The notes: generated by a model not told the origin, from the letters alone. A stretch of 64,000 nucleotides of DNA from a virus (IMGVR_UViG_3300042509_002208:1-64000), one strand, 5' to 3'. Counted from the first letter of the stretch, positions 41,872-47,851 are shown. Numbers and translations are program-made.

Positions 41872-42333
41872 TTAACGGTCCTCTAGGGGAATTCCTTCGT
41901 CTTCGTCGTCAGCATCGTCACTGGTTGCGTAGGTTAGGCCTGGGATGCTTTCGACAACCATCCGCATGTAACGATGAATATCTTCCTCTTCCCAATCGCA
42001 TTCGTTATACAGGCGGGAACCAAGTTCGTTGAGTGCCATTGAATGGTTCTCACGCCAGAAGCCGATATTTAAAGCGTCTTCTTTTACCTTGGATACCATC
42101 ATCAATATTTCTAATTCTGTGCTCATGTCTGACTGGAGGACGACCTGTTCTGTGTAATTGGTCCGCTTCCTGTCAATCAGCCAGAGGACAAATTTAAAAG
42201 AATGAGCAACGCCGCGTAACGCTAAATCTGATAAGGTAACGTGAACATTCACAAAGAATTCAAATATAATCCTCAGTCCTTCTATAAAGTTCTCGCCGAA
42301 TGAGCCAACTAAGTTGTAGAGCTTGTTTCTCAT
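41872..42333 (-). CDS. hypothetical protein
   Basis: Coupled to the helicase. Confidence 0.7.
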   Translation of the reverse strand: MRNKLYNLVGSFGENFIEGLRIIFEFFVNVHVTLSDLALRGVAHSFKFVLWLIDRKRTNYTEQVVLQSDMSTELEILMMVSKVKEDALNIGFWRENHSMALNELGSRLYNECDWEEEDIHRYMRMVVESIPGLTYATSDDADDEDEGIPLEDR

Positions 42334-44102
42334 CGTCTGATCCTGGAACTTTTGACAACATCAATGTTTTGCATCGTGTCATCATTTTTCAGACTTGAGG
42401 TCTGATAGTCCAATTGTATCAGCGACATCGAAACAAATCCCTGGACAGTTAAGATTTGCTCGTTTGGAGGTTGACCTTCCCAGAAAGCTTGCCTGCCGCG
42501 TACCTTAGAGTGCCAAACCTCAAGTTTTCGATCGTTAGGTTCTCCTTCCGCAGCCTTATGTTTACGAATGAGCCAGACCGCATGGGAGACATGCGACAAG
42601 GCGTCAGTGCCACGAATCTGATCAAGCTCTGGTGGTCTTGGTTGGGCCTTCATATCTTGTTGTTCATTCTTGATTCCTACTTGGTTCATCTGAGCCAGGA
42701 CAAACAGATCGATGTCCAGTTCCTTGGCTGCGGTCATCAGCTTGTAGGCTCTTTCTTCCAGCATTGAAGGATTATCGCGAGGAGCCTTTTGGTGTCGCGA
42801 CAGGACGTGGAAGTGATCGAGAACAACTGCTCTCAGTTCCGGATTCTGTGCTTTCATTGCACGCATCGAATTAACAACAGTGTCAACACATGCGCCCCAT
42901 GGAGCCTCAATCAACAACTTGCCATGCTGTTGTTCAAGTTCAAAAGCAAGCATCCCAATCAGATTAGCTAGGCTCTCTTTGTCATTCAGATTAGGACTTT
43001 CAAGTTCACCCACTGTGACGTAACCAATTCCATCTTCAGTGGCTTTCCAGTGGTAGCCATGCTTTGCCAGCAGCTTTCGACTAAGGCTTGCCATCAGCCT
43101 TGCTTCGATAGCCGGATAATCAAGTTCTGCTGAAATAAATCCAACTGTCAGTCCTTTGGTGCATAACGAAGCTGCTATCTGACAGCCAATTGCCGTTTTG
43201 CCCACAGAGGTTCTGGCGGCAACGGTCATAAGACGCCCACCACAAGACTTGCGGGTATCGGGATAGGCGACACCACCTTCAATATCAATATCAAAAGCAT
43301 CAATACCAGTAGATGCTGGTCTTGTGATTCTGGAGAGCGCAGACAGACGATCAATCCAGTTCTGTCTTTGTGCGCCTGGATTACCGATAATAGCATCAAT
43401 CAATCCAACTGCCTGTCCCTGGTTGCCAATACTGCCGCGCATCATCCCAACGCCTTCCATAGCGCGTTGCTGTAAATATTCAAGCGCTTCTTCTAATTTT
43501 GTATCAGCTTTTATGTTTTGTTTTGCATTATGAAGAGTCTCAAGATACAGCGCTCTAACTCGTACTTGTTTTAGTACGTCTAATGCTGTCTCCCACTCCG
43601 ATATTTCGTCACCGTATCTTTCTATTGTTTCTGGATCGGCGAGTTCTGTTATCGTTTGATTAAAATCAATTAGCGATACACTTCTGGATGATTGATTGAG
43701 ATTAGAATAGTTCGCAATCAAAGATTCACGGGAAATTACCTGACCGGTTCTTTCTCCTATGAATGTTAGATCTATTTCTTTGGCGATAGCTCGAAAGCAT
43801 TCGTCAGACCAAAGAGATGAGGGTATTAGTTGATTATGACCAATACCAAATCCAGTCCTAAGCTGAGACCACAATTCTCTGGCGAGACCGCTCCTTGACG
43901 ACAAGACGCGGCTAAGAACAATCGCTTCCTGACTGATTGTTTCTTCTCGTTCTTGTACGCTTGTTGGCTGAAGCTTGTCTACGGTACGCGCAACTTCCAT
44001 TGCACGATGGATGACCTCTGTATTGGTTGAGACAATACGGTCCCCTTCGGACTGGAGTAGCCCGAGGTCTACGGCTTTCTGGAGGTAGAAAGGTAAGGTC
44101 AT
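42330..44102 (-). CDS. dnaB: DnaB-like replicative helicase
   Basis: Walker A ARTSVGKT, FISAEL, Walker B VVLDHF, LAQMN, KVR. Confidence 0.85.
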   Translation of the reverse strand: MTLPFYLQKAVDLGLLQSEGDRIVSTNTEVIHRAMEVARTVDKLQPTSVQEREETISQEAIVLSRVLSSRSGLARELWSQLRTGFGIGHNQLIPSSLWSDECFRAIAKEIDLTFIGERTGQVISRESLIANYSNLNQSSRSVSLIDFNQTITELADPETIERYGDEISEWETALDVLKQVRVRALYLETLHNAKQNIKADTKLEEALEYLQQRAMEGVGMMRGSIGNQGQAVGLIDAIIGNPGAQRQNWIDRLSALSRITRPASTGIDAFDIDIEGGVAYPDTRKSCGGRLMTVAARTSVGKTAIGCQIAASLCTKGLTVGFISAELDYPAIEARLMASLSRKLLAKHGYHWKATEDGIGYVTVGELESPNLNDKESLANLIGMLAFELEQQHGKLLIEAPWGACVDTVVNSMRAMKAQNPELRAVVLDHFHVLSRHQKAPRDNPSMLEERAYKLMTAAKELDIDLFVLAQMNQVGIKNEQQDMKAQPRPPELDQIRGTDALSHVSHAVWLIRKHKAAEGEPNDRKLEVWHSKVRGRQAFWEGQPPNEQILTVQGFVSMSLIQLDYQTSSLKNDDTMQNIDVVKSSRIRR

Positions 44103-44108
44103 AATCGA

Positions 44109-45110
44109 TTATAGCTCGTCATCGTAACGCCAGAAGCGCTCGCGTGACTCCTCAGGTTCAGGGATATTGCTAGGCCAGCTTGGTAGCTGGTACTTCATTC
44201 TAAATTTAGACGGATCAAGTTTTTCTTTGATGAATTGTTCTTCTACTTCCAGGATTTGATCCGATAATGTATCTATGCTACCGGGATCATTTCTGAGCAT
44301 GTTAAAATATAGATAATGGAGTTCATCATATCGATCAATTAGTTTCCTAAGCCTTGCTGGTAGTGTTACTTGATCTGTTCGATCTTCCTCGTTAACAGCT
44401 TCTGCTTCGTCATAATTTAATCCTTCATTGTAAAGCGAATATACATTTTGATATTTCTTTTGCATCGGAGCGCCAATCCCGATAATACTTTGAAGTGTCT
44501 TACTGGTGTTCTCCTTTGACCAGAACGGTGAATGGTCAACTCCGGCTTTGAGTATAGAGAAGAAGTGTTCATAGTCGTGTGGAGTTATCTCAAGCGCTTT
44601 GATATGAAGGTCTAATGATTTCATGAGCTGATCGCTCATTTTATTAATCTTAGCGTAATCTTTGGGCCGATAATTATTCCAAGCAATTCTTGCTTGTTCT
44701 AGGTAGTTTACTTTTTGCTTTTGTTCTTTTGGTTCTGACTTGGGCGCTTTTTCATAATAAGATGGATCAAGGATTTCCGTATCAACTATCTCTCGGCTTC
44801 TTATATCTGCAACTCTAAGTTTTCTCAGAACAGGAATTGGGTCTTTTAATATAATATGTTCGTTGGTACCAGAGATAAAACCTAGTTCTCTAAGTTCTGC
44901 CATACATCTAATCCTGGTGGCACGATGTATACCAATTCTTCTATCCAGAACTCCTTTGTCTACGGGCATGTAATCAGCCTGGCTGGCCAGGATCATCCAA
45001 AGAAGCTTGGTGTTCGCCTGCAAATCATCGCAATAAAGCAACTCAAATGGAGCCTTTGCGAAGCGCCCTACTGCCCAGTCGTGGCTTTTTGAGATCGAAA
45101 TCTTAGTCAT
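44109..45110 (-). CDS. replication initiator (N-terminal winged HTH)
   Basis: KLLWMIL...RIGIHRATRIRCMAELRELGFI; upstream of the helicase and next to the iteron region. Confidence 0.65.
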   Translation of the reverse strand: MTKISISKSHDWAVGRFAKAPFELLYCDDLQANTKLLWMILASQADYMPVDKGVLDRRIGIHRATRIRCMAELRELGFISGTNEHIILKDPIPVLRKLRVADIRSREIVDTEILDPSYYEKAPKSEPKEQKQKVNYLEQARIAWNNYRPKDYAKINKMSDQLMKSLDLHIKALEITPHDYEHFFSILKAGVDHSPFWSKENTSKTLQSIIGIGAPMQKKYQNVYSLYNEGLNYDEAEAVNEEDRTDQVTLPARLRKLIDRYDELHYLYFNMLRNDPGSIDTLSDQILEVEEQFIKEKLDPSKFRMKYQLPSWPSNIPEPEESRERFWRYDDEL

Positions 45111-45768: not shown

Positions 45769-46485
45769 ATGGCCGAGATTCCGAACCTTGCTGGAGTAGC
45801 AACAACTGATCTTGTCGAAACCATTGGCTCCGGCAGTTTTAAAGCTAGTTATATCAATTGGTCGCGAACCTTAAATCTGCTACGTCAGAACGCGCCTGGC
45901 TGGAACGTTGAAGCTGTAGCTTCCATCGATGGCGGACTGATCCATCGAGATCCGGTTGGCGGTCACCTGATGATTTGCTATCGACACATCGATGGCACAG
46001 TGACTCCTCAGGTTCCGCAGGCGATCATGGATCACCGGAACCAAGCGATTCCTTACGAGAAGATTACGGCCAGAGACGTGAGTGATACGCATCGTCGCGG
46101 AGCTTGTCTCGTGGCTGCAATGCAGTTTGGCCTTGCTCATGAGCTGTGGGCCAAGATGCCCCTTGAGAGCGGTTACGGCTCTGATGTGGATAAAGACGCG
46201 CCGCGCATCTCAGAGGCCCCCAGAACAGCCTCTGAGCCGCCTCAGAAGGCGGTAACGAAGGAAGACTTCCTGGAAGCCGCCCTGGAGAAGGGGCTCCATA
46301 CAAAAGCTGCAGAGGCGCTGCTAGAAAAAGTTGGCACAAACTACGCTGGTGGCGTCAAAACATTGGCAGCCAAAGACCTGGCCTGGGTTGACCAGCAAAA
46401 CGCTCCTTTCTTGGAGGAAGCTGCCCCAAAGCAATCGAAGCCAGCGGCAAAGAAAACTACCAAGCCAGACCCCAGCGAGTACTAG
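45769..46485 (+). CDS. single-strand annealing protein (Sak3/DUF1071-like)
   Basis: SYINWS...AIMDHRNQAI...ARDVSDTHRR...FGLAHELW. Confidence 0.7.
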   Translation: MAEIPNLAGVATTDLVETIGSGSFKASYINWSRTLNLLRQNAPGWNVEAVASIDGGLIHRDPVGGHLMICYRHIDGTVTPQVPQAIMDHRNQAIPYEKITARDVSDTHRRGACLVAAMQFGLAHELWAKMPLESGYGSDVDKDAPRISEAPRTASEPPQKAVTKEDFLEAALEKGLHTKAAEALLEKVGTNYAGGVKTLAAKDLAWVDQQNAPFLEEAAPKQSKPAAKKTTKPDPSEY

Positions 46486-46616
46486 AGAAACAAGATTTCC
46501 CCAGACTGCTGGACTACCAAGAACTTCCCCAAGCGGAGTTCATCGATGTAGCAGCCAGCAGCTTGGCGAAATATTTCTCTGGAGAAATTATTAAAGATTA
46601 CGAGGGGCCTGTCTAA
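46425..46616 (+). CDS. start-less 63-codon frame, probable -1 frameshift extension of the annealase, ending in a DnaX-like motif
   Basis: Heptamer C CCA AAG 46425-46431, GGAGG at 46413-46417; frame reads PKAIEASG...FIDVAASSLAKYFSGEIIKDYEGPV* and stops in the terminator loop. Confidence 0.55.
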   Translation, partial: PKAIEASGKENYQARPQRVLEKQDFPRLLDYQELPQAEFIDVAASSLAKYFSGEIIKDYEGPV

Positions 46617-46626
46617 GCCCCTTTTT
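46603..46626 (+). terminator. intrinsic terminator
   Basis: AGGGGC-CTGTCTAA-GCCCCTTTTT. Confidence 0.7.
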
Positions 46627-46660
46627 CTCTGTTAGATTGATTTTGCTAATTCCTTTGACG

Positions 46661-47473
46661 ATGGAACTCAACCAGGACAGCCTGACCCACTGGATGAACA
46701 GAGCCGGGTCTAAGCCCCTGTTGGATCAGGTTGAAATTGATAATATCGCCAGGATTATCCAGTCATCCGAGCCTGGCTCTAAGAAATATAAAAAATATGT
46801 CAACAAGATTGTCGAGCACAACCTTCGCCTTGTCGTGAAGTTTGTCCATGCGTTTATGACGCATAAGACGATGAACAATTGGGGATCGCCAGATACCCTT
46901 GACTATCTTCAAGTTGGTTCACTTGGCTTGTATCGGGCAGCAGAAAAGTACGACCCAGATAGAGGATATAAGTTTTCTACTTACGCAACACACTGGATTC
47001 GTTCATTTGTCGGCAGGTATAACCTGAAAACAATGAGCACTTTTACGATACCAGAGCACGCCTCTCGTAATGCTCATTATTTTGAGGCTCACGGGACTCC
47101 AAAGAGACGCAAAAGTGGCGTCATGCCAACCGATGGCGAAACAGTCGAAATGGTCAAGCTATTGCGTAATGCGCAACGGCCTATGTCGCTGGATGTAACC
47201 ATTGATGCCTGTGGCGTTACATTGCTTGACACCATAGATAGGCAATACGAGGCGCCGGATGCTTTTGTTGAAGGGTGCTTCGATACAGAGACTGAAGACC
47301 TCTTCGTTAAAGCCGGGCTCAGCGGAAAACAGATCTTCATCCTTCGAGGACTCTTCGTTGATAACGCCAAAGCAGGTGACATCCAAAAGGATCTATGCAT
47401 CTCCCAAGGGCAGTATCTGAAACTAAAGAAGCAGGCTTTGGACTCGCTAAAGTCTGTATTAGAACCGGTATAA
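46661..47473 (+). CDS. RNA polymerase sigma70-family factor (RpoD/group 2-like)
   Basis: EHNLRLVV, LQVGSLGLYRAAEKYDPDRGYKFSTYATHWIR, PMSLD. Confidence 0.9.
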   Translation: MELNQDSLTHWMNRAGSKPLLDQVEIDNIARIIQSSEPGSKKYKKYVNKIVEHNLRLVVKFVHAFMTHKTMNNWGSPDTLDYLQVGSLGLYRAAEKYDPDRGYKFSTYATHWIRSFVGRYNLKTMSTFTIPEHASRNAHYFEAHGTPKRRKSGVMPTDGETVEMVKLLRNAQRPMSLDVTIDACGVTLLDTIDRQYEAPDAFVEGCFDTETEDLFVKAGLSGKQIFILRGLFVDNAKAGDIQKDLCISQGQYLKLKKQALDSLKSVLEPV

Positions 47474-47500: not shown

Positions 47501-47851
47501 ATGGCTACGATTGCAATTGCAGGAACTGTTACTGGAAAGGCAGGCGAATCTCCTGTCACTCTAAAGACGTTTGATAACGGGGATACTGTCGCAAGCTTCT
47601 CGGTTGCTGACCGGGCATATGTATATGCCAAGCCAGGCGAAGATCGCCAAGGTCAATTCTATCGCTGCGAAGTGCGCGGCAAAGCTGCCGAAATCGCTGC
47701 AGAGCGGATCAACCGTGGTGACAAAGTGGGTGTTTCTGGGCAACTGGTTCAGCGAACCTATAACGACAAGCTGTATCTTGACGTGAAGAACGCCTCGATT
47801 ACTTTCCTGGAAACTCGCAACCAGGACTCCAAGGGCGAAATGCCGTTCTGA
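47501..47851 (+). CDS. ssb: single-stranded DNA-binding protein
   Basis: OB-fold pattern (VASFSVA, FYRCEVRGKAAE, GDKVGVSGQL), C-terminal EMPF. Confidence 0.85.
   Translation: MATIAIAGTVTGKAGESPVTLKTFDNGDTVASFSVADRAYVYAKPGEDRQGQFYRCEVRGKAAEIAAERINRGDKVGVSGQLVQRTYNDKLYLDVKNASITFLETRNQDSKGEMPF

Follow-up and report, generated by a model that had tools for sequence, protein, structure and literature searches.

At the 3' end of the annealase gene of the cyanophage studied here, a reading frame without a usual start codon runs past the annealase stop and ends in a segment that resembles the C-terminus of the DnaX tau protein. This arrangement raises the question of whether the frame encodes a protein, how ribosomes would gain access to it, and which partner its product would address. 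The stretch of DNA analysed, referred to below as the window, comprises 64,000 nucleotides, the opening 64 kb of a virus record that is 79 kb long and rated 100% complete. Among named viruses, the Synechococcus phages S-CRES1-3 are the closest relatives, and their gene order is the same. A sequence-only reading of the window had proposed that a -1 frameshift places a tau-mimic tail on the annealase, and this overall proposal is largely supported by our results. Comparative analysis establishes that the tail is coding and conserved, that it is specifically like the tau C-terminus, and that a slip site is present in every relative carrying the tail in the -1 frame. The full proposal, in which the frameshifted annealase captures host Pol III through its tau-mimic tail, is in our judgment the probable explanation, with considerable room left for doubt. 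A search of the literature returned no description of a tau mimic, of recoding or frameshifting in an annealase gene, or of the S-CRES phages.

The annealase gene (45769..46485, plus strand) encodes in the zero frame a Sak/Rad52-like SSAP of 238 aa that ends in ...KPDPSEY followed by a TAG stop. The protein matches PF06378 (SSAP_Sak) over residues 7-129 with 24.4 bits against a curated cut-off of 22.3, as well as phrog_21418 (9e-56), and its orthologues in the S-CRES phages are annotated as Rad52 recombinase. More than 1500 homologues were found, with lengths of 218-261 aa. Among the 120 best of these (P0002-P0121), which were read individually, the proteins finish in acidic-aromatic ends such as ...PDPSEY, ...SAEQW, ...GENW and ...QEEY, and no long in-frame form was present. 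Judged by these homologues, the zero-frame stop is genuine. Because these 120 homologues end at this conserved tail and none is long, any tail encoded downstream must belong to a second product. The ordinary C-terminus of the annealase (46450-46485; ...KPDPSEY, in relatives ...NSAEQW or ...GENW) recalls the type of C-terminal tail found on SSB. A shifted isoform would swap the acidic-aromatic end for the tau mimic, and thus the two isoforms may address different partners.

The annealase gene lies in a replication module. Upstream, on the minus strand, are a DnaB-type helicase gene (42330-44102) and a replication-protein gene (44109-45110), while a sigma-factor gene (46637 or 46661 to 47473) and an SSB gene (47501-47851) follow downstream. 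The sigma-factor open reading frame is listed from a TTG at 46637; an ATG at 46661 (MELNQDSLTHWMNRAG...) is a better match to the N-termini of the S-CRES orthologues. The choice of start affects the size of the space behind the annealase gene, which the tail had been said to fill as an otherwise empty gap of 130 nt. The tail does occupy the first 131 nt, but the gap itself measures 151-175 nt, depending on the sigma start chosen. The only tRNA gene in the window, for tRNA-Leu(CAA), is located far away on the minus strand (680-751).

The -1 frame is closed upstream of the putative slip site by a TGA at 46389..46391 and remains open over 46392-46613, a total of 74 codons, 63 of them counted from the heptamer, while the zero-frame stop is found at 46483-46485. 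These 74 codons contain no ATG or GTG, and their sole TTG (46563-46565) falls inside the motif, so that between the TGA and the motif there is no ATG, GTG or TTG at all. An independent small gene would be recognized by a canonical start with a ribosome-binding site ahead of the conserved region; this arrangement is absent here and present in some relatives. The slippery heptamer C CCA AAG (46425..46431, plus strand) is in phase with the zero frame, within codons GCC CCA AAG (46423-46431), and would place CCA in the P site and AAG in the A site. A Shine-Dalgarno-like GGAGG (46413..46417), a possible stimulator, precedes the heptamer by 7 nt. The predicted trans-frame segment (46431..46616) consists of 61 codons and a TAA; it would replace the last 17 annealase residues and add the tail, giving a product of 221 + 61 = 282 aa in place of the 238-aa annealase.

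Two conserved elements can be distinguished within the tail. The tau-like segment, FIDVAASSLAKYFSGEIIKDYEGPV, is encoded at 46539..46613, with the core IDVAASSLAKYFSGEII at 46542-46592. Ahead of it, FPRLLD (46497..46514) represents the second conserved motif, [FY]PxL, of the long-form tails collected in alignments A2 and A3. This motif (FPRLLD or YPQLGP) lies about 14 residues before the tau-like helix and outside the predicted interface with DnaE described below. At its 3' end the tail runs into a terminator-like hairpin and T run (46602..46631) whose stem and loop hold the last tail codons (EGPV) and the stop. The hairpin proper spans 46602-46623, with the TAA (46614-46616) in the loop and the T run after it, and is built from those last codons (GAG GGG CCT GTC TAA GCC CC). 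Constraint on the conserved ...DYEGP(V) ending may thus act on the peptide and on the RNA stem alike. On re-reading, all that had been stated about the heptamer, the GGAGG, the bounds of the -1 frame, its starts and the terminator loop proved correct. The earlier caveat that a strong 3' hairpin is lacking was likewise borne out, as the RNA downstream of the heptamer folds no better than shuffled sequences (z=-1.63) and offers no convincing stimulatory structure.

High slippage at C_CCA_AAG depends on the reading of AAG by tRNA-Lys(UUU). The genome that we used as a stand-in for the host (G034, a complete 2.7-Mb cyanobacterium) carries 44 tRNA genes, with a single tRNA-Lys whose anticodon is UUU. 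For E. coli, C_CCA_AAG is listed with two other heptamers as the most prone to shifting (PMC5009743).

To place these features in a wider context, approximately 220 related loci were taken from IMG/VR and JGI metagenomes; in each, the annealase stop was located and the three forward frames were scanned with a profile of the peptide. The motif is encoded directly after the annealase stop in 79 non-redundant cyanophage loci, with varied codons and the core [ID]DxAAxSLAxFFxGx[IV][IV] (also given as IDxAAxSLAxFFxGxII). Of these loci, 24 have the tail in the -1 frame and 54 in the +1 frame, and in one it follows a TGA in the zero frame. Within the part of the tail that does not overlap the annealase gene, dN/dS was 0.05-0.18 in most close pairs of long-form -1 relatives, including comparisons of the window with L003 (WIN-L003, 0.125) and L260 (WIN-L260, 0.081). 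Differences within the tail fall on codon positions 1, 2 and 3 in the numbers 1018/813/1717, with the third position the commonest. Coding-type conservation in relatives had been named as a condition for the original proposal, and it is met by these ratios and by the persistence of the motif across the 79 loci. We regard it as practically certain that the tail is a real, conserved, tau-like peptide. The combination of heptamer, open frame and peptide is far beyond chance, all three being conserved in relatives.

The likeness of the tail to tau was then judged against cyanobacterial DnaX. The ends of DnaX from two cyanobacterial MAGs read ...IDDKAKRLADFFNGEVV... and ...IDAKAQRLAEFFNGEVV..., or in fuller text ...PELIDDKAKRLADFFNGEVVQLDG... 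and ...GAIDAKAQRLAEFFNGEVVSFDG..., and these, together with matches across whole genomes, confirm as real the DnaX end motif that had been put forward initially. We ran the phage-peptide profile A2 against six-frame translations of 61 cyanobacterial genomes, 56 of which gave any match. For 48 of these 56, the best match fell on the dnaX 3' end; in 5 more genomes the dnaX end came second, and 2 further matches, on split contigs, were DnaX-end-like. Matches were assigned to the dnaX end by manual cross-tabulation when they shared contig and strand with the gamma3 domain and lay 0.6-1.4 kb downstream of it. Comparison of the phage peptides (A2) with DnaX C-termini (A6) by hhalign gave 97.5% probability and an E of 6.4e-12 over 26 columns. 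Conversely, a profile built from DnaX only found a single match in the whole phage genome, at 46527-46610 on the plus strand (E 9.7e-5). By profile comparison in both directions, the tail motif is thus the reciprocal best match of the cyanobacterial DnaX tau C-terminus, which answers the profile test proposed at the outset. The phage has no DnaX, and the motif sits on the annealase gene and not at the end of a clamp-loader (AAA+) DnaX, indicating a mimic and not a member of the DnaX family. In many of the cyanobacterial dnaX 3' ends read (L099-L127), tau continues after ...LAxFFNGxVV into an acidic stretch that ends in D(V/I)PF, EDF or LEF; this acidic ending looks like a C-terminal tail of the SSB type.

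The motif can also be placed on the better-studied tau of E. coli. Neither a cyanobacterial DnaX C-terminus nor profile A2 retrieved a tau chain from PDB sequences, and the E. coli tau C-terminus was read directly (...ESIIADNNIQTLRRFFDAELDEESIRPI). The cyanobacterial profile sets KSLAxFFNGEV opposite QTLRRFFDAEL of E. coli tau in exact register, with an hhalign match that is weak on its own (E 0.057). In this register, tail residues S27-L28-A29-K30-Y31-F32-S33-G34-E35-I36-I37 stand opposite T626-D636 of E. coli tau. Tau residues 626-643 form the contact with alpha and 626-636 are required for it; residues 622-636 adopt an induced helical form (H7) against a hydrophobic patch of alpha, and the L635P/D636G change weakens alpha binding (PMC11470591).

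If the tail is a second product of the annealase gene, the manner of its production must be explained. Each of the 24 loci whose tail is in the -1 frame contains a slip site that is in phase and situated ahead of the annealase stop, within the open -1 window, and this satisfies the expectation that the heptamer be kept in relatives. The site is a canonical heptamer in 22 of the 24 and an A7 run (CCC AAA AAA A) in the remaining 2; by type, C CCA AAG occurs in 13 loci, A AAA AAG in 7, G GGA AAG in 2 and C CCT TTT in 2. An in-phase heptamer is found in 22/24 loci of the -1 group versus 4/55 other loci (Fisher p=1.8e-13), the latter being near the chance rate. The slip sites lie at no fewer than eight different distances from the annealase stop (-7 to -61) and so do not reflect one inherited accident. 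Furthermore, where x-Pro-Lys is encoded, it is written C CCA AAG in 13/22 cases in the -1 group versus 0/12 elsewhere, where C CCC AAA predominates; one short-tail +1 locus that was left out of this set (L040) does have C CCA AAG. The heptamer marks the very point at which the -1 frame opens in the relative L260, which is 78% identical. No ATG, GTG or TTG is present in the open window of 12 of the 24 -1 loci, this phage included. In 8 of the 24, again including this phage, the heptamer is preceded at 7-8 nt by GGAG(G) or GAGG, an element that is not universal. We think it quite likely that the tail is made in this phage by a -1 shift at C CCA AAG, although no trans-frame protein has been observed and both the shift event and its rate are inferred.

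The strongest competitor to the frameshift is that the tail is released as a free peptide of approximately 45-60 aa, translated by non-canonical initiation or by termination-reinitiation beside the annealase stop, that competes with tau for Pol III alpha and either shuts off host replication or frees Pol III cores for the phage. A separate peptide had been raised as an alternative from the start. In some lineages gene callers do give free open reading frames that begin with GTG or ATG and encode 25-76 aa. A GTG that overlaps the stop of the annealase, or an ATG immediately ahead of the [FY]PxL motif, is available in some relatives; in L077 an ATG lies 20 nt past the annealase stop. The varying frame of the tail relative to the annealase (-1, +1 or 0) is also what would be expected of an independent cistron. 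For the phage under study, however, the 74-codon frame has no ATG or GTG, and initiation at its only TTG would halve the motif. Across the family, no canonical start exists in the open window of 27/78 loci, and starts, where present, are not conserved in position. The stop-overlapping GTG is forced by conserved Gln-Trp codons and is also present where it leads nowhere. Finally, a free peptide leaves the perfect association of an in-phase slippery site with the -1 frame unexplained.

The lack of a natural in-frame fusion of annealase and tail speaks for a free peptide and against the frameshift, none having been found either among the 120 best annealase homologues or in protein searches with the tail profile A3. 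Searches for longer proteins with the 63-aa peptide and with A3 also returned none, which is weak evidence since profiles this short are underpowered against billions of sequences. Against 1.84 billion representatives, A3 matched only tiny called open reading frames, barring two irrelevant matches: P0137, an unrelated repeat protein, and P0140, a protein of 2648 aa matched in 10 short stretches.

Many relatives do not share the -1 arrangement. The 54 loci with the tail in the +1 frame, among them L001 and L002 (S-CRES3 and S-CRES1) and 52 others, and the one in the zero frame have no recognised shift site, and so one mechanism cannot explain the whole family. In 48 of the 54 +1 loci the annealase ends in UGG, UAY or UUU followed by UGA-Y, and the +1 frame reads GAY (Asp) across the annealase UGA stop (for example at L018:2201-2281 and L055:2228-2320). 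The geometry across the stop recalls that of prfB and antizyme sites, from which the present loci differ in that the last sense codon can re-pair in one locus only. A +1 slip of the last sense codon is unsupported, as UGG, UAY and most others cannot re-pair, the exception being L080 (UUU U). In 15 of the +1 loci the +1 window spans only 26-56 nt and lacks a canonical start; other +1 loci have an ATG or GTG. At L038:2236-2295 the tail follows the annealase TGA directly in the zero frame (EAY, stop, KHHLRSFISFFDGTLVTE, stop), which could be stop-codon readthrough or an assembly indel.

Because of the +1 tails, the called open reading frames, the L038 arrangement and the lack of any fusion, a free tau-competitor is possible in part of the family. 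The separate-peptide alternative is weakened for the present phage and not excluded for the family, where ATG or GTG starts occur in some relatives and the tail is mostly in the +1 frame; it is less applicable here than in those lineages. As an explanation of this locus we consider it unlikely, though still to be taken seriously. A broader formulation would be that a polymerase-less cyanophage family recodes the 3' end of the annealase gene to append a tau mimic, coupling annealing to the replicase without a clamp loader, by -1 slippage in about one third of lineages, by an undescribed event at UGA-Y in most others, and perhaps by readthrough in one. This extension remains tentative, and we would not yet rely on it.

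Returning to the -1 frameshifted annealase of this phage, its tail would need to contact the polymerase subunit that tau itself contacts. We therefore modelled the tail (alignment A3) in complex with the C-terminal 260 residues of the DnaE encoded by a Synechococcus MAG (alignment A5), as the sequence-only reading had suggested. The complex scored 0.66, compared with 0.16 for the best control. The mark set for such models was reached by 58/80 solved complexes and 2/110 mismatched pairs, counts that hold only roughly because our own alignments were used. Model runs share at least 85% of contacts, and the pLDDT of the partner is at least 63. Tail residues 20-43 form the predicted interface, and the DnaE contacts with the lowest error, 190, 217 and 226, correspond by BLASTP to E. 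coli alpha L1098, Y1119 and L1128, so that the tail is placed on the equivalents of tau-binding residues. Changes at alpha L1097/8, Y1119 and, more mildly, L1128 disrupt the tau contact and replisome coupling (PMC11869525). The model may lean on solved alpha-tau structures, and the DnaE used is a stand-in for that of an unknown host. Recruitment of host Pol III, as first suggested, thus gains support from homology to E. coli tau H7 and from the complex model, but binding has not been shown. That the tail binds Pol III alpha is a prediction that we favor with reservation, no binding having been measured, and any effect of such binding on replication is inferred.

In several cyanobacterial genomes (L267, L268, L276-L278; G034, G007, G027) DnaE was found as two open frames of 889 aa and approximately 450-470 aa, far apart, in keeping with the split-intein dnaE of cyanobacteria. 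The tau-binding end is on the small piece.

The frameshift isoform could also be real with a partner other than Pol III alpha, namely the replicative helicase, phage proteins or another partner of the tau C-terminus. The partner of the cyanobacterial tau motif lacks an experimental test, mutants of E. coli tau domain V also alter the behaviour of DnaB (PMC11470591), and the second conserved motif, FPRLLD, is unexplained. Weighing against such a partner, the tail motif aligns with those E. coli tau residues that are required for alpha binding, and the complex model puts the tail on the equivalents of the alpha residues named above. We consider a different partner improbable on present evidence. 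Least tenable is the idea that the frame is open merely by chance, spans a terminator or promoter spacer that does not code, and yields no product, a reading that draws on the overlap of the last codons with the terminator hairpin and on the scarcity of stops in the other frames of the region too, and that is refuted, as far as computation can do so, by purifying selection in exactly the tail frame, by the motif conserved across 79 loci with varied codons, and by the reciprocal best match to DnaX.

A tau-mimic tail that docks on Pol III alpha would be of use to this phage. We found no DNA polymerase of family A, B or C anywhere in the phage genome, which extends to the complete record an absence that had been noted for the window alone. 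Similarly, no family A polymerase was found above cut-off in 22 tail-bearing contigs, and none of family A, B or C above cut-off in 9 tail-bearing genomes that are at least 95% complete. Having no polymerase of their own, these phages must use the host replicase.

We propose that ribosomes translating the annealase mRNA would sometimes slip one base back at C CCA AAG (46425-46431) and read the -1 frame to the TAA at 46614-46616, yielding the 282-aa isoform in which the ...KPDPSEY end is exchanged for a 61-residue tail. The end of the tail would copy the alpha-binding helix of host DnaX tau, which reads TLRRFFDAELD in H7 of E. coli tau, SLAxFFNGEVV in cyanobacteria and SLAKYFSGEII in this phage. 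The tail would then dock where tau binds, on the C-terminal domain of host Pol III alpha, and annealase assemblies on single-stranded DNA may recruit or retain the host replicase where 3' ends have annealed. The outcome would be replication primed by recombination or annealing, in a phage equipped with an initiator, a helicase and SSB but no polymerase.

Several features of the proposed site are comparable to those of E. coli dnaX, where frameshifting at A AAA AAG produces tau and gamma. Both have an in-phase X XXA AAG heptamer, a Shine-Dalgarno-like element (in some members of the phage family), only tRNA-Lys(UUU) in the host (judged here from the stand-in genome), and two isoforms with different C-termini, and in both the tau-alpha contact is at stake. 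In contrast, the shift in dnaX truncates the protein so that the alpha-binding end is lost, whereas the shift proposed here would add a copy of that end to an unrelated protein, the annealase; the phage site also lacks a strong 3' hairpin. The tail shares with tau H7 and with the cyanobacterial ...AAKSLAxFFNGEVV... the motif L-x-x-[FY]-F-x-[GA]-E-[ILV]-[ILV] in equal register, and is predicted on equal alpha residues. Unlike DnaX tau, it has no AAA+ domain and none of tau domains III-V, being a linear mimic of approximately 25 residues.

The phage tail assembly chaperones G/GT (lambda, G GGA AAG) provide another parallel, with recoding that is conserved in a family and a minor, C-terminally extended isoform. 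In the tail assembly chaperone family, the frame and direction of the shift also differ between lineages. The annealase belongs to another class of gene with another function, and the G/GT extension is a folded domain while the annealase tail is a short host-mimicking motif. With regard to the replicase, the phage resembles SPP1, which has no polymerase but its own initiator, helicase and SSB and subverts host Pol III, its G40P helicase contacting host tau and primase (PMC3561973). SPP1 reaches Pol III through host tau, whereas here tau would be imitated and bypassed, with the annealase as the carrier.

Capture of the host replicase by polymerase-less phages is known for few models, through contacts that these make with the host's helicase, primase or tau. 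A recombinase bearing a copy of the polymerase-binding tau helix would link recombination directly to replication and would be a new route of replicase capture for a virus, with the annealase as a new class of gene for programmed frameshifting. The tail would also offer a naturally occurring peptide that binds Pol III alpha at its tau site, a discussed antibacterial target. Since relatives carry the tail in three frames, they form a natural series in which to seek unknown recoding signals, and experiments are feasible because the cultured Synechococcus phages S-CRES1-3 carry the +1 form. If the family-wide proposal is true, the +1 lineages hold a new signal for shifting at a stop codon without a slippery P-site codon.
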